Source of the DNA: Felixounavirus LF110P2
Direction: 5' to 3' (one strand)
Sequence record: OZ035782.1
Length of the DNA: 64,000 nucleotides
Shown: positions 3,115 through 64,000 of the stretch, in pieces
Layout: each line of letters starts with the position of its first letter
Position numbering within the stretch: the stretch's first letter is position 1
Made by a program: the position numbers and the translations under genes
Notes under the pieces: model-generated
What the model was told of the DNA's origin: nothing
What the model saw: only the letters and a program-made list of their open reading frames with translations
The model's database searches: none

Positions 3115-3614
3115 TGGCTGAAGTTATCTCTATTTCAAATGCTACACGGGTGCATTCGTATAGAGGTGTTCTTATCATCACTGACAAGTTATCTGTAGAG
3201 GCTGGCTCAAGGGTCAGCCTTTCAGGTTATGTAAGTGATGGTGGAGCCTCTGACGTTTTCACTATTTGTAGGTTACTTGATGCACCAATGAGTGGAAAAC
3301 CGTTTATTTCAGGAAATTGTAGTGAAATTGTTAAAATTCCATTTGACAGTTCATGCCTTTTGGGTGTAAAGTTATATAACTGCGAGAATAAACGTATCAA
3401 TGTTAATAGCATTGAAGCCGCTTTCATTACCCTCGACACTGCATTTCAATCTCCAATGACAGTTAATAAAGAAACAAACAGACTTGAATACATTTTTTCA
3501 CAAAATGATTACAAAGTACTTGTCAAAGGCAAAGTATATGATATGATTGTAAATGTGGTAGATGAATCTGGTAACCATTCAACAGTCCTTAAACAAAAAG
3601 TAAGGTTTAATTAA
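3114..3614 (+). CDS. Hypothetical head-module protein
   Basis: Intact ORF with ATG overlapping portal stop; function not recognisable. Confidence 0.3.
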   Translation: MAEVISISNATRVHSYRGVLIITDKLSVEAGSRVSLSGYVSDGGASDVFTICRLLDAPMSGKPFISGNCSEIVKIPFDSSCLLGVKLYNCENKRINVNSIEAAFITLDTAFQSPMTVNKETNRLEYIFSQNDYKVLVKGKVYDMIVNVVDESGNHSTVLKQKVRFN

Positions 3615-11287: not shown

Positions 11288-19303
<8,016 letters not shown>

Positions 19304-19305
19304 TA

Positions 19306-20493
19306 ATGGCGGTAGGTGAAATTCAAATTAGTGCCTTGCCTCAAGCAGCCTTACCAATTGACCTTAGTGATATCTTCCATCTTAAGCAGGGTATTGAGGA
19401 TAAGAGATGTACTCTTGAGCAATTACTTGCTCCACACTCAAGCCTAAGAAATAACCCTCATGGTGTTACTAAAACACAAATTGGTTTAGATAATGTTATT
19501 AATGCTCTTCAGTTAGTTGCTGCAAATAACTTATCAGATGTTGTTAATGTAGCTGAGGCAAGAGCAAATCTACAGATTATGTCTTCAGAAGAGGTTAATA
19601 ACCTTGTTCAACAGCATATTCAGGACAAGAGCAACCCACACAATACAACTAAGGCACAGGTTGGTTTAAGTAATGTTCAGAACTGGACAACATCTAACCT
19701 TTATAATGAGGATGCAGATAAGTACGCTACAGCAAGAGCAGTAAATAACTTGTACAAGGCTGTTCAGGCTTCCTATCCAGTAGGTACTATCCATCTTTCC
19801 ATGAACTCTGCAAACCCTTCTACGTATTTAATTTGTGGAGGAACTTGGGAGTTAGTTTCAAAAGGTAGGGCATTGGTTGGTTATGACTCTGATACAAGAC
19901 CAGCAGGCTCTGTATTTGGTGCTTCAACTGTCACTTTGTCAGTTAATAACATGCCACAACACTCACACTCTGTGTCTCTTAGTGGTGGTGGTCATGCTCA
20001 TAATGCAACTGTGTCAATTTCAGCTTTTGACTATGGAACTAAGACTACCAACTCTTTTGACTATGGAACTAAGACCACTAACACAACTGGTAACCATAAC
20101 CATGTTGGTAGTGGGTCAACAAGTTCTGCTGGTGCTCATAACCACAGATTGACCTATGAATCAGGTGGTGGTTTATCGGAAAGACCTGCAATGGTTTGGT
20201 CTTCAAGGAATGACCAATCATGGTACTCAGCAGATGCTGTCTGTGAAGTAGCTGGTGCACACACCCACTCTTTTAGCGTTACCACTAACACAACTGGTAA
20301 CCATAATCATACGGTGGGTATTGGTGCTCATAGCCATACAGTTGGTATTGGTTCACACACACACAGTGGTACTGTGACAGTTTCTTCTTCTGAGCATACA
20401 CATAGTGGAAACACTAATAGTGTTGGTGGTGGACAAGCTTTCAACATTGAACAGCCATCCTTCGTACTGTATGTATGGCAGAGAACAGCTTAA
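19306..20493 (+). CDS. Tail fibre protein with C-terminal His-x-His repeat receptor-binding tip
   Basis: C-terminal third is rich in HxH motifs (GNHNH, GAHNH, GAHTHS, GSHTHS, SEHTHS), as in T4 gp12/gp37-type fibre tips; shares a C-terminal module with the next gene and ends ...WQRTA. Confidence 0.6.
   Translation: MAVGEIQISALPQAALPIDLSDIFHLKQGIEDKRCTLEQLLAPHSSLRNNPHGVTKTQIGLDNVINALQLVAANNLSDVVNVAEARANLQIMSSEEVNNLVQQHIQDKSNPHNTTKAQVGLSNVQNWTTSNLYNEDADKYATARAVNNLYKAVQASYPVGTIHLSMNSANPSTYLICGGTWELVSKGRALVGYDSDTRPAGSVFGASTVTLSVNNMPQHSHSVSLSGGGHAHNATVSISAFDYGTKTTNSFDYGTKTTNTTGNHNHVGSGSTSSAGAHNHRLTYESGGGLSERPAMVWSSRNDQSWYSADAVCEVAGAHTHSFSVTTNTTGNHNHTVGIGAHSHTVGIGSHTHSGTVTVSSSEHTHSGNTNSVGGGQAFNIEQPSFVLYVWQRTA
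20026..20085 (+). repeat. Perfect-length 30-bp tandem duplication inside tail fibre gene (encodes FDYGTKTTNx twice)
   Basis: TTTGACTATGGAACTAAGACTACCAACTCT followed by TTTGACTATGGAACTAAGACCACTAACACA (27/30 identical). Confidence 0.8.
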
Positions 20494-32981: not shown

Positions 32982-33175
32982 TTTTACTCCCTCTAAAATC
33001 ATTAACCTCATACATTACTGCAAAAAATTATAAAAAGCAAGTTGACAATGCACTTGACAAGGTGTTAATCTTTGCGAAGTGGGTTTTTACTTAAAAGGTT
33101 ACTTAACAGCTTAACTATACAGATACTTTAAAACTCTTAAAAGATTATTTAATAGCTTTTAAAAAGCTTTAAAGT

Positions 33176-33194
33176 ATAACGTATAGAATACGTT
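33176..33194. promoter_or_regulatory. 8-bp inverted repeat TAACGTAT-aga-ATACGTTA in divergent intergenic region
   Basis: Perfect palindrome arms with 3-nt spacer, about 45 nt upstream of ORF 33239, inside a 227-bp AT-rich divergent region. Confidence 0.3.
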
Positions 33195-59283: not shown

Positions 59284-59300
59284 TAAGTAATTTCTTAAAA

Positions 59301-59322
59301 GGCTGCTTCGGCGGCCTTTTTT
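59301..59322 (+). terminator. Intrinsic terminator
   Basis: GGCTGC ttcg GCGGCC hairpin followed by TTTTTT. Confidence 0.55.
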
Positions 59323-59346
59323 ATTTGTATTTTGTGCAGAGTGCTG

Positions 59347-59352
59347 TATAAT
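59347..59352 (+). promoter_or_regulatory. Consensus -10 hexamer TATAAT upstream of ORF 59384
   Basis: Perfect TATAAT 32 nt upstream of the ATG, with weak -35 TTTGTA at 17-nt spacing. Confidence 0.3.
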
Positions 59353-59383: not shown

Positions 59384-59932
59384 ATGAAGAAATTGATTCT
59401 AGGTTTGTGCTTAATGTTTACAGCACACTTATCTTATGCAGTTGACTGCCCAGAGCTATCAATTAGCCAAAAAGTAAACATGTTAAAAGCTTACCAGTAT
59501 GGTGAGAATAACATGGGTAAAGGTTGGGGTATCACTCTAGCTGCTATAGCCTTACAAGAGTCAGAGTTAGGTCTGAAGGTAGAGAATAAAAAGACACATG
59601 ATTATGGTATTTTCCAGAATCACTTGAAGACTGTTGTAAAGCGTAACAAAATTAGTCCTAATGTGGCTAAAAAGAAACTCTTAAGAGACTTTGACTATGC
59701 TGCAAAGGAAACGCACAAAGAACTTGAATTTTGGACAAAGGTGCATGGTCAGCCAAAGTCAAAGAAAACTTTACAAAAAGTTTTAGCATCATATAATGCT
59801 GGGTATTCGTACAGAATCCCTAAAGCTAAAAAATATTCTCAAGATGTCTATAACAACATGAAAGTTATCGCTCAATGTGAATTTGCAACAAACATTTCTA
59901 AGGTAAATCATGAAAAAATTAAGAAAGTCTGA
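59384..59932 (+). CDS. Secreted lysozyme-like / lytic transglycosylase-domain protein (endolysin candidate)
   Basis: Signal peptide MKKLILGLCLMFTAHLSYA, then ...LAAIALQESELG...DYGIFQ... resembling the SLT catalytic Glu-Ser and GLMQ-like motif. Confidence 0.35.
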   Translation: MKKLILGLCLMFTAHLSYAVDCPELSISQKVNMLKAYQYGENNMGKGWGITLAAIALQESELGLKVENKKTHDYGIFQNHLKTVVKRNKISPNVAKKKLLRDFDYAAKETHKELEFWTKVHGQPKSKKTLQKVLASYNAGYSYRIPKAKKYSQDVYNNMKVIAQCEFATNISKVNHEKIKKV

Positions 59933-60605
59933 TGAAGTACTGTGTCATGCTTATGACTTACATCCTCATGAGTTAGGTCTTGATTCCTGTGTATGGACTC
60001 CAGAACAGTGTAGGGATTTTGAAGACACTGCAAGAGAAGTTGTATGTTCACTTGAAGAGTTTCACACATCAGAGCCAATTGTGAATGTTGTAGATAAAGA
60101 GACTGGACAAACTATAGGGGTAAGTCGTGATAGTTTAGTCATAGTCAATAAAGACCTTGTAGAAAAAGGTAACCTCATCTTAGCAGATATTGATGGTGTT
60201 CTTACAAATTTTAATCACGAAGATTGCTCAACGGAATTGACTGATGGGTCATTCTCACAGTACACTAATCTTCTTGACTCTGTAAGAGCAAAACCAACGT
60301 ATGTTTTTAGTATTATTGATGCAATTGCTAATCATGCTGCCATTGGACTCTTGACAGCGAGAGGTGAATCTCAGAGAATACCTACTGAGATGTTTTTAAG
60401 GCATAACATAGAGCATGACTACATGCTTTTTATGCGTGGTTTTGGAACTAACTCTATAAGTGCAGAAAGTTTGAAAGTGAGGATGATTCAGTCTTGCATC
60501 CTGCCTTACTTTAATATAGTATGTTTTATAGAAGACACAGAGAAGAATGTGCAGAAGGTGAACAGAATCCTTCCACACATTAAAACCATGTTAGTTAAAC
60601 ATTGA
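59910..60605 (+). CDS. Hypothetical protein, possible HAD-like hydrolase
   Basis: LILADIDGVLTNF resembles HAD motif I (DxDG); other motifs not placed. Confidence 0.25.
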   Translation: MKKLRKSDEVLCHAYDLHPHELGLDSCVWTPEQCRDFEDTAREVVCSLEEFHTSEPIVNVVDKETGQTIGVSRDSLVIVNKDLVEKGNLILADIDGVLTNFNHEDCSTELTDGSFSQYTNLLDSVRAKPTYVFSIIDAIANHAAIGLLTARGESQRIPTEMFLRHNIEHDYMLFMRGFGTNSISAESLKVRMIQSCILPYFNIVCFIEDTEKNVQKVNRILPHIKTMLVKH

Positions 60606-60615
60606 GAGAAAACTT

Positions 60616-61080
60616 ATGAACAATATCATTACGGTAGCACTGGACGATACGGTAAACAAATCCGCAGTAGTTCGTAAAATGATTCAAGGTAACTTTGAAG
60701 GTAAAATTTTTCGTGCTGTTAATGTAAAAGCTGATGGCAGCATTCGTGAATATCGTGCATTGTTGAACGTTAAGAAGCACGTAAAAGGTGTTGGTTCAAC
60801 GACTGCACACAAAGAAAACCTGATGACTATCTATGATATGGGTAAGGCTTCAGAGTTAGGTGCTGAAGGTATCGTTAAAGAAGGTGCTCCGTATCGCTCT
60901 TTCAATCTGGAAACTACTCTTATGCTTTCCTTTACAAGTGGTTCCAAAACAATCACTTATCTCTTTACTGATGCTGCAACGGTATCTGCTATTAAGGATA
61001 GCACTGTCAAAGCTGGCGTAGTTGCTGCTGCAAAAGCTTCTTCGATGGCTGCGAATATCCTTGCTAAAGTCCTCGGTTAA
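60616..61080 (+). CDS. Hypothetical protein
   Basis: 154 aa ORF followed by terminator. Confidence 0.3.
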   Translation: MNNIITVALDDTVNKSAVVRKMIQGNFEGKIFRAVNVKADGSIREYRALLNVKKHVKGVGSTTAHKENLMTIYDMGKASELGAEGIVKEGAPYRSFNLETTLMLSFTSGSKTITYLFTDAATVSAIKDSTVKAGVVAAAKASSMAANILAKVLG

Positions 61081-61092
61081 GGTTAAGATACA

Positions 61093-61113
61093 GGCTCCTT
61101 CGGGAGCCTTTTT
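61093..61113 (+). terminator. Intrinsic terminator
   Basis: GGCTCC ttcg GGAGCC hairpin followed by TTTTT. Confidence 0.6.
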
Positions 61114-61132
61114 CATTTCAGGAGATTGTTAA

Positions 61133-61480
61133 ATGACATTTAAAGAGTTCTGTCAAGCTACTTTCATAATTGTTTTCTTAGTTGGGGCGGGTGTCTGGGG
61201 AGGGTACTCTTACAGAGACTACCAAGTTGCTGAAACTGAGCTAAACAATCAAAAGCTCATAAGTGTTGCTAAAGATGCTTATCAGGAAGGATTAGTTACA
61301 CTGAGCGCCAATTACAAAAATGATTTGAAAGATGTGCTTGCTAAGAATAAGCACACAAAAGAGGTACTAACATATGAAAAAACTAAGCCAGAGTTTTATA
61401 ATGTTTGTGTTACTGATAATTATGTCAGGGTGTTCAACGAACAAAGTGAACAGTACATTCAAAAACTCCCAAGTAAGTGA
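61133..61480 (+). CDS. i-spanin (Rz-like, inner-membrane spanin subunit)
   Basis: N-terminal TM helix FIIVFLVGAGVWGGY followed by charged helical periplasmic domain; an overlapping +1-frame lipoprotein ORF begins inside it. Confidence 0.5.
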   Translation: MTFKEFCQATFIIVFLVGAGVWGGYSYRDYQVAETELNNQKLISVAKDAYQEGLVTLSANYKNDLKDVLAKNKHTKEVLTYEKTKPEFYNVCVTDNYVRVFNEQSEQYIQKLPSK

Positions 61481-61643
61481 GAGTGATAAGTACACTCAAG
61501 AAGAATCACGGTATATCATCAAAGGCAACACAGGCAGTGATGTAGCAGCAGCACTTGAGTTCTACCGTGACGGCTTTTACCAGTGTACAATTAAAGCTAA
61601 TAACCTTATTGACATGATTTTATTAGGGAATAAGCAGCAATGA
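61374..61643 (+). CDS. o-spanin (Rz1-like outer-membrane lipoprotein), overlapped with i-spanin
   Basis: MKKLSQSFIMFVLLIIMSGC: signal sequence with lipobox ending in Cys; AGAGGT RBS; starts within the i-spanin gene in another frame. Confidence 0.5.
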   Translation: MKKLSQSFIMFVLLIIMSGCSTNKVNSTFKNSQVSESDKYTQEESRYIIKGNTGSDVAAALEFYRDGFYQCTIKANNLIDMILLGNKQQ

Positions 61644-61909
61644 CAGAGAATCAAGACACTTTCTATGTAGAAGGTTACTTACTGTTGCCACGACCAAAAG
61701 AAACTTATATGCGAATCGATTTCTTACCAACCATTATGGATAATGTGATGTGTCATATCTTTATGCAAGGTGTCACAGCACAGCTTAAGCATGTTGGTAA
61801 AGATTGCAAAATAAAGGTTGACACTCATCCAGAAATCAAAGAGAATCACTACACATGGTTCTTACCAGATTCTAAAGAAATCTTAGCAGTTCTTAAAACG
61901 AGGAAGTAA
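61640..61909 (+). CDS. Hypothetical protein
   Basis: 89 aa ORF. Confidence 0.3.
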   Translation: MTENQDTFYVEGYLLLPRPKETYMRIDFLPTIMDNVMCHIFMQGVTAQLKHVGKDCKIKVDTHPEIKENHYTWFLPDSKEILAVLKTRK

Positions 61910-61911
61910 CT

Positions 61912-62238
61912 ATGCAGATTAATGGAAGAGACTTTGTAGCCGTTTACTACGAGAAAGATAAAGAAGTTGGCGTAGCACAAGTAACTTACGGCAATGGTAA
62001 GTGGCTATATGGAACAATTGCAGTGGTCGGAACAAGAAGTGACACAAAAACTTTTAAAGATTGTGTTGACCTTCTTGAAGAATCCATTCAGAATCATTGG
62101 TGTCTGATATGGATGACTGACAACGAAGTGATAGAACGCTTCAAAAAGATTGATATCAACATTGATAGTATTGAGCATGTTGATTTATATGAGCTAACTG
62201 AGAAGGTAAACTATGAAAGTAATACTAGCCAGAGATAA
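61912..62238 (+). CDS. Hypothetical protein
   Basis: 108 aa ORF with AGGAAG RBS. Confidence 0.3.
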   Translation: MQINGRDFVAVYYEKDKEVGVAQVTYGNGKWLYGTIAVVGTRSDTKTFKDCVDLLEESIQNHWCLIWMTDNEVIERFKKIDINIDSIEHVDLYELTEKVNYESNTSQR

Positions 62239-62440
62239 AAAGACACGAAAGCTTATCAGGTCAGCAGTGTTCATTGGACGAAATGAGGTCATCCCATTTA
62301 CAGCAAATGATGTGATAGCTTACAGGAAGAACTTAGTATTCACTGACTGCTTACGTGGCTTCATCTCTGAACCATTGGAAGACTTTAAAAGTCGTTGTGG
62401 TAAAGGTATCATCATTCAAGAGGCAATTATTCATGGCTGA
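62213..62440 (+). CDS. Hypothetical protein
   Basis: 75 aa ORF. Confidence 0.25.
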   Translation: MKVILARDKKTRKLIRSAVFIGRNEVIPFTANDVIAYRKNLVFTDCLRGFISEPLEDFKSRCGKGIIIQEAIIHG

Positions 62441-62633
62441 CTTCTGTAAAGATTGTTCTATCGAAATGTTCGGACGTGATACAGGTGACTTAAAAGGTCT
62501 TATCACTGAAGATGACTTTAAAGCTGGCTACGCAATGCCAGTAATCTGTGAAGGTTGTGGGTGCATCTGGGTAGACCACGAAGGGCAACGTGTAAAACCT
62601 TCAGAAGATAAAGAATCTTGGGAGAGATGTTAA
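62433..62633 (+). CDS. Small Cys-rich protein
   Basis: MADFCKDCSIEMF...ICEGCGC; start at internal ATG with AGAGG RBS. Confidence 0.25.
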   Translation: MADFCKDCSIEMFGRDTGDLKGLITEDDFKAGYAMPVICEGCGCIWVDHEGQRVKPSEDKESWERC

Positions 62634-63419
62634 ATGGGTATTGTAAAAATCATCAATGGCGATATCTTTGCAGCATTTGATAAAGGTAAGTTTGACATCA
62701 TTGGTCACGGTTGCAACTGTATGAATTTAATGGGTGCAGGTATCGCTGACAAGATTTCTAAACTTTACCCAAAAGCATATGAGACCGATACAGAAGTTTA
62801 CCTCTATGCAGGTGGTATAGGTCACAAACCCTGTGAAAATCTACTGGGTAATTTCTCTGTAGCACGTTTAGAACAAGGCCGTATAGCTAACCTTTACACT
62901 CAGCTTAAGACTGGTAAAGATGCCCGATACAGTGCTTTAGAGTCATCTTTGAAACAACTTAACAGATACTGTGAAGTCAATCAGTTGAAGAAAGTTGGGT
63001 TACCTATGATTGGTGCAGGTATCGGTGGACTAGACCCTCAAGCCGTCACAGTTATCATTAATCAGGTGATGAAGAGTGTAGATGTGTATCTTTATGTCTA
63101 CGAAGGAGAGATGTACCACAAGTTACGCTCAGGTTGGAAGAACTACTGTGAACCAGAATACTTTGCAGGTGTAGCAGTGTTCACAGATGATACAGTTACC
63201 CTCTTCAGACGAAGAAAAGGTAAGATACATCAAAGTAACCCTCCGGTTGAAAAGATGTCTCTAAGTAACGCTCTAGTTACCCACCTGTCGAAGAGCAATC
63301 ACAGGATTGCAGTAACATTTGGCAGTGATGCAGATACTTACATCTATGCAAGAACTGATGAGGATATCGAGACAGTTTTCTCTTCGCCAGAAGTTACCTT
63401 CTTAGACGCAAAGAACTAA
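62634..63419 (+). CDS. Macro-domain (ADP-ribose binding/processing) protein
   Basis: N-terminal GDIF...DIIGHGCNCMNLMGAGIA and second glycine motif LPMIGAGIGGLDP match the two conserved macro-domain loops. Confidence 0.45.
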   Translation: MGIVKIINGDIFAAFDKGKFDIIGHGCNCMNLMGAGIADKISKLYPKAYETDTEVYLYAGGIGHKPCENLLGNFSVARLEQGRIANLYTQLKTGKDARYSALESSLKQLNRYCEVNQLKKVGLPMIGAGIGGLDPQAVTVIINQVMKSVDVYLYVYEGEMYHKLRSGWKNYCEPEYFAGVAVFTDDTVTLFRRRKGKIHQSNPPVEKMSLSNALVTHLSKSNHRIAVTFGSDADTYIYARTDEDIETVFSSPEVTFLDAKN

Positions 63420-63450
63420 GAAACTTCGTAGGATATTCACAATAGACTAA

Positions 63451-63493
63451 GCCTTTCTTATCTGGTAAATTTTTCAGGTAAGGAGGGCTTTTT
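63451..63493 (+). terminator. Terminator-like hairpin with U-tract after macro-domain gene
   Basis: GCCTTTCTT pairs with AAGGAGGGC (two G-U pairs) around a 20-nt loop, followed by TTTTT. Confidence 0.3.
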
Positions 63494-63685
63494 CATTTCA
63501 GAATTGTGCAGGTATATTTCTATAGAGAAATCTGTAGAGAAAATTTTGAACTCCAAAGAGAAAATTCATTTTCAAATTGTGCAGGTAATCTCCAAAGGGC
63601 TTTTTCATTTTCAAAACGTGCAGACCCCGCTCAGGTCGGGCAAGAAAAATCATTTTAGAATCGTGCAGGTAGGTTTTTATAGAGA
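63487..63685 (+). repeat. Cluster of four direct repeats, core TCATTTT(C)A(R)AA(T/C)(Y)GTGCAG(GTA)
   Basis: Copies at about 63494-63515, 63567-63589, 63604-63625 and 63649-63670; two are preceded by CTCCAAAG(A/G)G and two followed by TATAGAGA. Confidence 0.6.
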
Positions 63686-63766
63686 GCCAGACCAACCCCT
63701 CTCCCCCTCTTACTCCCCCTCAGATAAAGAGCTTTACCACTAAATCCTAAATTGGAGAACTTAAAA

Positions 63767-64000
63767 ATGGCTATTATCAAAAACGTTGTAATTGCTGCAA
63801 AAACTCGTGATGACGCTCGCGTTATGGCTAAAAAGTTATGCGGGAAAGTGGTTGACAACGGAAAACAATCTGCTGTAAGGTGGGGCGTGAAGGCTGATAA
63901 ACAGTTGAAGTTAAAAAATTCACCGATAAACCTTTTTACATGTGTAAACACTATCGGGAAGACAAATGTATACACGAAAAAGGCATACATTAGACGCGTA
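63767..64000 (+). CDS. Hypothetical protein, 5' part only (runs off window end)
   Basis: ATG at 63767 preceded by TTGGAGAAC; open frame to end of window (MAIIKNVVIAAKTRDDARVMAKKL...). Confidence 0.35.
   Translation, partial: MAIIKNVVIAAKTRDDARVMAKKLCGKVVDNGKQSAVRWGVKADKQLKLKNSPINLFTCVNTIGKTNVYTKKAYIRRV

Follow-up and report, generated by a model that had tools for sequence, protein, structure and literature searches.

Felix O1-like phages are widely used in Salmonella typing, biocontrol and therapy. In the stretch of Felixounavirus LF110P2 DNA analysed here (record OZ035782.1, 64,000 nucleotides, referred to below as the window) a cluster of direct repeats occupies non-coding DNA close to the right end, and the question raised by this locus is what recognises these repeats and in which process they take part. 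A first-pass annotation, made from the letters of the window, had put forward phage-specific promoters, iterons or packaging-related sequence as possible answers.

The repeat array and its surroundings

Four exact matches to TCATTTYNRAANNGTGCAG were found, all of them on the + strand (63493–63511, 63566–63584, 63605–63623 and 63650–63668). With up to two mismatches allowed, the whole window gave 5 matches against 0.41 expected, a number that none of 100 shuffled sequences reached, and no further match was found in the remaining 23 kb of the 87-kb genome. The four core copies described in the first-pass annotation are thus all where it had placed them near the window end, on the same strand and far above chance, and the genome-wide search confines the motif to a single locus, so that it does not behave as a motif of random frequency. 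The extended flanks were recovered as well, CTCCAAAGAG and CTCCAAAGGG preceding copies 2 and 3, respectively, and TATAGAGA following copies 1 and 4. A weight matrix derived exclusively from phages of other genera (Erwinia, Hafnia and Moogle-type) scored the four copies at 25.7–33 bits and the next best site of the 87-kb genome at 14.6; on shuffled genomes its scores went up to 24 bits.

Three elements make up each repeat unit: a genus-specific G-rich box (about 10 nt), an A-run or T-run of 5 nt and the bipartite core, TTCATTT-N7-GTGCA. An alignment of 46 distinct copies from 18 genomes revealed two highly conserved blocks, TTCATTT and GTGCA, separated by seven moderately conserved bases. The centres of the blocks are placed about 12 bp apart, close to one helical turn, with information peaks at positions −13 to −8 and 0 to +4. 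Neither palindromes nor inverted repeats of note were found in the array. The start-to-start spacings are 73, 39 and 45 bp here, 37, 37 and 39 bp in phiEa21-4 and 55, 43 and 53 bp in Zyzzx.

The array is embedded in a non-coding region of about 500 bp with A/T windows of 72–78% (Table 1). The A/T content reaches 72–74% between copies 1 and 2, and a 78% window found 160 bp downstream in the full-length record corresponds to the upstream element of a promoter that is deleted in the window. In full-length relatives this strong promoter lies 185 bp downstream of the array. On the left side the macro-domain gene always directly precedes the array, with the same gene order in all genera examined, and is followed by a terminator annotated as such in phage ASO1A. 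Its 17-bp stem includes G-U pairs, so that it would be active only on + strand RNA, and its T-run continues into copy 1. The DnaA-like box at the ATATTCACA site is present in Felix O1, SUSP2 and ESh22 (7/9) and absent in Moogle. The CTATAGAG and CTGTAGAG boxes belong to an 8-mer family that is clustered in the 1.6-kb region holding the terminal repeat (see below), and in the Hafnia phage the same boxes stand after copy 4.

A TTGTGCAG sequence at 59332, just upstream of a TATAAT at 59347, had also been regarded as related to the array. Both sequences exist, but the 8-mer occurs at chance frequency (4 found, 3.6 expected), the site reaches only 12–14 bits on the matrix and it falls within the spacer of a TTGTAT-16-TATAAT promoter, unrelated to the array. 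In this segment (59300–59352) the terminator GGCTGCTTCGGCGGCCTTTTTT comes first, and TTGTAT-16-TATAAT, which looks like an ordinary sigma-70 promoter, lies between it and the gene at 59384.

Table 1. Features at and around the repeat array (window coordinates unless another record is named).
Feature	Position	Strand	Remarks
Macro-domain protein gene	62634..63419	+	261 aa; Pfam Macro, E = 1.2e-7
ATATTCACA, 8/9 match to the DnaA box TTATNCACA	63433..63441	+	weak lead only
Rho-independent terminator of the upstream operon	about 63449..63495	+	−25.8 kcal/mol, z = −6.1
Repeat copy 1, core TTTCATTTCAGAATTGTGCAGG	63491..63512	+	29.9–31 bits
Two CTATAGAG / CTGTAGAG boxes, 12 bp apart	63520..63539	+	after copy 1
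Repeat unit 2: box CTCCAAAGAG, A-run, core ATTCATTTTCAAATTGTGCAGG	63551..63585	+	33–34 bits
Repeat unit 3: box CTCCAAAGGG, T-run, core TTTCATTTTCAAAACGTGCAGA	63590..63624	+	29.5–31 bits
Repeat unit 4: box GTCGGGCAAG (Erwinia-phage type), A-run, core AATCATTTTAGAATCGTGCAGG	63635..63669	+	25.7–28.5 bits
TATAGAGAG box	63678..63686	+	after copy 4
C-rich tract CCCCTCTCCCCCTCTTACTCCCCCTC	63696..63721	+	part of a 14+3+14 mirror repeat (whole left arm and centre, 9 nt of its right arm)
Deletion junction	63721..63722	.	missing bases are 63722–64364 of OZ035766.1
Leader and Shine-Dalgarno cassette (AGATAAAGAGCTTTACCACTAAATCCTAAATTGGAGA), start of the next small early gene	63722..64000	+	ATG at 63767; gene runs off the window
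Early-gene cassettes	63722–63766; L002 2320–2410, 2690–2790, 3300–3395, 4560–4650		

A 643-bp difference from the full-length record

By megablast, positions 60000–64000 are 100% identical to the Felixounavirus LF110P2 record OZ035766.1 at the same coordinates, and 257 records, mostly of Felix O1-like phages, matched this segment. OZ035766.1 (read as locus L002 in Table 1) is the full-length record referred to here. The sole difference between the two consists of 643 further bases in the record after window base 63721. This deletion takes out the rest of the C-rich tract (the right part of its mirror repeat), the early promoter TTGACT-17-TAGTAT and the A/T-rich element upstream of it, one promoter-hairpin and a gene of 127 aa; its left edge lies in the right arm of the mirror repeat and its right edge at the foot of the first promoter hairpin. 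No contiguous match over the junction was found among 50,697 phage records, and the missing bases are present in every related record examined, in some of them as a different allele. Their absence represents either a true deletion variant or an artefact of assembly or editing. Once they are gone, the gene at 63767 is left with no obvious promoter. An IMG/VR locus (L141) stops 8 nt beyond the right deletion junction of the window.

A 6.7-kb block, about 7.7% of the genome, forms the right end and has the array at its inner edge. It is made up of small hypervariable early genes, all transcribed toward the end from promoter-hairpin-leader cassettes. A near-identical cassette precedes each of these genes and comprises TTTACA, a hairpin GGGGCTTA...TAAGCCCC with TAAAGT inside it, AGATAAAGAGCTTTACCACTAAATCCTAAACTGGAGA and the ATG. 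These cassettes resemble the gene-shuffling promoter-stem-loop cassettes of T4-type phages.

The C-rich tract

The polypyrimidine tract reported downstream of the repeats is present, but it cannot be called strictly C/T-only, as 25 of its 26 bases are pyrimidines and an A occupies position 63712. Its pure pyrimidine run of 16 nt is no longer than those of shuffled sequences (mean longest run 17), and what is unusual in the tract is its C-richness and its mirror symmetry. In the full-length record it forms an exact C/T mirror repeat, CCCCTCTCCCCCTC-TTA-CTCCCCCTCTCCCC (14+3+14), whose − strand reads GGGG-AGA-GGGGG-AGTAAGA-GGGGG-AGA-GGGG and is a canonical G-quadruplex motif (four G-runs of at least 3, loops of up to 7), of which that genome has only two. 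The deletion leaves three G-runs in the window, so that the motif is complete in the full-length record only. The other canonical motif, GGGGCGGGTGTCTGGGGAGGG, is located at 61184–61204 (+) of the window, in the coding region around 61.2 kb.

Two alleles were seen after copy 4. Allele A carries the C-rich mirror repeat, and allele B (L134, L135 and L160, about 3530–3600, the counterpart of window positions 63670–63721) carries GGTGGGTGCAGGTGGGGATGTCGCCATTTCTCACAAGG..., a sequence rich in G on the + strand and in part a duplicate of GTGCAGGT; the two alleles rejoin at AAAAGTCAA(G/C)AGAAAAATTTGTAGCGG. Many Felixounavirus genomes match a 306-bp query of the region only to position 255, that is, through copy 4, and at the position of the tract the Hafnia phage shows only a G-poor stretch. 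The tract is thus allele-specific, with neither the commoner allele nor distant genera carrying it, and the array does not require it. Two IMG/VR contigs (L142 and L143) end inside the tract at ...CTCTTACTCC, in the latter with the Nextera adapter CTGTCTCTTATACACATCT following directly, and the tract seems to break assemblies or sequencing.

Conservation across the Ounavirinae

The 306-bp query matched 289 phage records, with the Erwinia and Hafnia phages at 73–79% identity, and in none of the records examined is the array annotated as a repeat or binding site. Three to four copies, in the same order and place, are found in Felixounavirus, Suspvirus, Mooglevirus, Kolesnikvirus and the Hafnia phage Zyzzx. 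The order of elements, as read in Felix O1, SUSP2, Moogle, ESh22, phiEa21-4, PMBT37 and Zyzzx, runs from the macro-domain gene and the terminator through three to four direct repeats and a C-rich or G-poor stretch to the motif AAAAGTCAAG (lacking in phiEa21-4) and on to a strong sigma-70 promoter and a small early gene. It is also kept in the closer 27 of the 29 IMG/VR loci found via the macro protein; at the two distant ones (41% identity) no array was found. A motif scan of IMG/VR detected arrays in Ounavirinae-type contigs (84–90 kb) only, and elsewhere single chance hits. No similarity of the array to plasmid origins or E. coli genomes was found. One IMG/VR locus (L149) continues with GC-rich, bacteria-like sequence after copy 3 and is likely a chimera. 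The papers on Felix O1, wV8 and UAB_Phi87 make no mention of the array, and the Bas63 PhageMaP preprint gives no intergenic result for Bas63. Few non-coding elements of the subfamily are conserved as well as this array.

Among 18 distinct Felixounavirus sequences the cores show a nucleotide diversity of 0.026, the terminator one of 0.017 and the spacers one of 0.069, and the values for the macro gene are 0.027, 0.016 and 0.128 at codon positions 1, 2 and 3, respectively. By comparison with codon positions 1 and 2, the cores are constrained like non-synonymous positions and are under purifying selection. These selection data argue against the array being a mere leftover of duplication.

Phages of E. 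coli, Salmonella and Citrobacter have GTGCAGGT at the 3′ end of the core, those of Erwinia have GTGCATAG there and the Hafnia phage has GTGCTTAT. Within a genome the form is the same in every copy, and the upstream box is likewise genus-specific. This concerted change by genus suggests that the partner of the array is probably phage-encoded and co-evolving with it, and not an invariant host factor. Single copies can decay, as seen in a point change of one core in L134 and L160 and in the three copies of L026 and L122.

The genome ends

A role in packaging or at the termini, as first proposed, is at odds with the terminal repeats mapped by experiment in relatives, which lie 6.1 kb further right and outside the window. 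The Ro111lw record carries an exact 613-bp repeat at both ends that maps to L002 7815–8394 (69,814–70,393 of OZ035766.1), and for Pr103Blw a 581-bp terminal repeat was obtained with PhageTerm. In UAB_Phi87 the Bal31-sensitive SpeI fragments measure 4322 and 2819 bp (PMC4837284). Only the interval 13013–19581 of an in-silico SpeI digest fits these fragments, which places a terminal repeat of about 573 bp at 15260–15833 of the record. The 542-bp duplication that ends UAB_Phi87 JN225449.1 / NC_027360.1 was rejected as the terminal repeat, which it would put in the tRNA region, 21 kb away; the SpeI digest set against the Bal31 fragments, together with the Ro111lw record, identifies it as an apparent assembly overlap. 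In that record (loci L006, L007, L164 and L167) the first 542 bp are exactly repeated at the end, inside the tRNA cluster, and this overlap could mislead users of the record.

Judged by homology to Ro111lw and UAB_Phi87, the true direct terminal repeat of about 600 bp sits inside a 1.6-kb non-coding region outside the window (OZ035766.1 69,337–70,980; L002 7338–8981). This region, placed at the convergence of + and − strand gene blocks and conserved across the Ounavirinae, is packed with units of about 11-bp period (CTTGTTAG, CTGTTAAG, CTTAAAAG and CTATAGAG) in both orientations. In the phages garuso and pinkbiff it is marked by two short 'repeat_region' features only.

Probable protein binding and a possible role in replication

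The bipartite asymmetric core of about one helical turn, the A- and T-runs that favour bending, the common orientation of the copies, the selection acting on them and their genus-wise specificity argue for an element that is bound by protein at the DNA level. The array probably provides docking sites for a sequence-specific DNA-binding protein, itself probably encoded by the phage, with several copies bound. Iterons in the broad sense of a putative protein-binding repeat array, one of the first proposals for this locus, gain strength from the selection on the cores, their asymmetric two-block build, their conservation across genera and the flanks that change in concert. In the stricter sense the correspondence is partial: iteron origins have three or more direct repeats of about 17–22 bp, all facing one way at a single locus, and the array has four such copies on the + strand; it lacks the regular close spacing of about two helical turns, and it is flanked by the macro-domain gene and non-conserved small ORFs in the place of a cognate initiator encoded alongside.

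The best explanation overall, which we put forward tentatively, is an iteron-like, probably protein-bound array whose most likely, though still doubtful, role is in replication initiation. In this scenario one asymmetric DNA-binding protein, or a monomer with two domains, would contact two successive major grooves of each core. The resulting nucleoprotein complex would be placed just after the terminator of the operon running from rIIA to the macro gene, at the inner edge of the early block of about 6.7 kb. Loading of the protein beside A/T-rich, structure-prone DNA and a strong early promoter could open the duplex, and the opened duplex might then be used by the T7-like primase-helicase and polymerase of the phage.

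As for the role by itself, a replication origin is the leading guess, and a doubtful one. It is prompted by a unique direct-repeat array that lies in conserved non-coding DNA beside an A/T-rich stretch and a strong promoter, a combination that is the classical signature of phage origins; the mirror-repeat and G4 tract of full-length relatives adds to this origin-like setting. Several observations weaken it. The replisome is T7-like, with a Toprim + DnaB_C primase-helicase resembling T7 gp4 and a PolA-type polymerase, and T7-like replisomes usually use transcription-primed origins without iterons. There is no evident initiator gene: none is annotated anywhere in the genome, the flanking small ORFs have no Pfam match, and the first downstream gene, whose counterpart in the closest record lies within the 643 bp deleted from the window, is not conserved across genera. 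The spacing of the array (37–77 bp) is wider and less regular than that of classical iterons. The cumulative GC skew is also silent, with no inflection at 63.5 kb and a course dominated by the direction of transcription. Moreover, there is a second, much larger non-coding repeat region at 69.3–71.0 kb, which contains the terminal repeat and could just as well house an origin. Against the best explanation also counts that the C-rich tract and the adjoining promoter are dispensable or replaceable. Scans for DnaA, IHF, Fis and GATC consensus sites gave no conserved sites in the array, the 8/9 DnaA-box matches inside the cores being limited to phiEa21-4. No mapped replication origin or entry mechanism for Felix O1-like phages was found in the searchable literature.

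The cumulative GC skew turns in a divergent intergenic region at 33090–33177, between the − and + strand gene blocks. This region contains repeats of the CTTAAAAG type together with an inverted repeat of 27 nt whose motif family is that seen in the terminal-repeat region, and may be a further regulatory or origin candidate.

Alternative roles of the array

Binding of a phage regulator to the four sites as an operator or insulator array for early transcription is on balance unlikely. Such a complex would stop read-through from the upstream operon or would switch the innermost early promoter or promoters on and off, for instance in early shut-off. The location of the array, after a strong terminator and ahead of the early block's first strong sigma-70 promoter, would suit this function, the phage encodes a 99-aa HTH_3 regulator, and the timing of Felix O1 transcription was left open in the genome paper (PMC3185647). 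However, the sites are placed 90–210 bp upstream of the promoter without overlapping it, more than 10 similar promoter cassettes further downstream in the early block have no such sites, and in the window the promoter is deleted yet the array is intact. The asymmetry of the sites is also unlike the palindromic targets that are usual for HTH_3 dimers.

A T5-like injection-stop boundary appears improbable. The array would then delimit, on the inner side, a terminal segment entering the cell or being expressed ahead of the rest, and a host or virion protein bound there would pause DNA entry or isolate the segment topologically. With the terminal repeat at 69,814–70,393, the array does bound the 6.7-kb end block of early genes described above, and the phiEa21-4 cores carry the 8/9 DnaA boxes mentioned above. 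[quoted passage not shown] Nevertheless, the T5 mechanism is itself hypothetical, the cores of E. coli and Salmonella phages have no DnaA boxes, and neither the inverted repeats or palindromes of T5 nor the paired DnaA boxes that they contain are found in the array. Besides, we know of no report of two-step DNA entry for Felix O1-like phages. There is accordingly little expectation that the array acts as a cis-acting inner boundary of a 6.7-kb 'host-takeover' block, as an entry-pause or domain-barrier site; if it did, the Felix O1-like myoviruses would deliver or express their genome in two steps.

Tandem promoters, used by sigma-70 or by a phage-modified polymerase and firing rightward into the early genes, are highly improbable. 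Copy 1 here does match TTTTCA-17-TATATT at 9 of 12 sigma-70 positions, and the deletion leaves no other obvious promoter for the gene at 63767. This match is gone in Felix O1 itself, though, and across copies and genera (46 distinct copies) the information at the would-be −10 positions is close to zero. The motif is confined to one locus and missing from every other gene start, which speaks against the phage-specific promoters first suggested, and promoter-like matches in the region are no more numerous than in shuffled sequences. According to the Felix O1 genome paper (PMC3185647), the phage has no RNA polymerase of its own and no apparent protein altering the promoter specificity of the host polymerase.

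Just as slim is the chance of an RNA-level element in read-through transcripts, in which the repeats and the C-rich tract would, for instance, load Rho or be recognised by an RNA-binding protein. The + strand RNA does have unusually little structure (both strands fold worse than shuffled sequences, z = +1.7 and +1.55), over 46 nt the tract contains 25 C and 2 G, and the Hafnia phage has a long G-poor stretch at the same place. On the other hand, a very strong terminator precedes the region, in allele B the C-rich tract gives way to G-rich sequence on the same strand, and the repeat cores are tied to no known RNA motif, all matches of the region in an Rfam search being far below the family gathering scores.

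A packaging signal or physical genome end at the array, which would agree with the repeat clusters that often mark pac or cos regions, is already contradicted and has a negligible chance, because the UAB_Phi87 fragments fit only an end within the 1.6-kb repeat region and the terminal repeats of Ro111lw and Pr103Blw are those given above. The small terminase subunit has not been identified in these phages (PMC3185647), a point that would leave room for such a signal.

Further candidates were discarded as well. Coding sequence was rejected as none of the frames open in Felix-like genomes stays open in phiEa21-4 or Zyzzx, and the repeat spacings are not multiples of three. In a by-eye comparison with the consensus sites of CRP, OmpR, MarA/Rob, sigma-54, sigma-E and LacI half-sites, the core fails on invariant bases or on spacing. 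The adjacent genes were rejected as the source of the cognate binder, as they have no DNA-binding domains and are not conserved.

The identity of the protein that binds the array would give a handle on replication or on early-gene control, and with this protein known the array would be flagged as a site to spare when these phages are engineered. No such consequences would follow if it were merely a duplication leftover.

Comparison with known systems

In kind, the array would belong to the familiar class of protein-binding repeat arrays. The polypurine-polypyrimidine tracts that form H-DNA or G-quadruplexes resemble the neighbouring C-rich tract in its exact 14+3+14 C/T mirror repeat in the full-length record; the tract differs from them in being shortened in the window and missing where the commoner allele is carried.

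The injection stop signal region of T5, Repeat Region 3 in its left terminal repeat, shares with the array its conserved untranslated repeats, its position at the inner edge of an end block of about 8% of the genome and the hypervariable adjoining genes transcribed toward the end. In T5 this region spans 1.2 kb within the long terminal repeat and contains palindromes, inverted repeats and 8 DnaA boxes, whereas the array has four direct repeats, shows DnaA-like boxes in one genus and lies outside a short terminal repeat.

The origins of the lactococcal and streptococcal phages c2, sk1, phi31 and Sfi21 are non-coding repeat clusters beside early promoters. They have no sequence similarity to the array, and they were confirmed by plasmid replication or by titration ('Per'). 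Several non-coding direct repeats beside early promoters of a virulent phage are common to both, and those origins were recognised by the same kind of sequence signature.

The closest terms of comparison for the iteron-like array favoured here are the iteron origins, such as lambda ori with its O protein, P1 oriR, P4 ori/crr, those of iteron plasmids and the T4 oriE repeats. Their repeats are spaced by about 22 bp, whereas the array has units of about 40 bp spaced by 37–77 bp, no adjoining initiator gene, no conserved DnaA or IHF sites and a T7-like replisome. In both, a unique non-coding locus carries three or four asymmetric repeats of about 20 bp that all face the same way, A/T-rich bent DNA and a promoter are nearby, and the repeats change in concert between related replicons.
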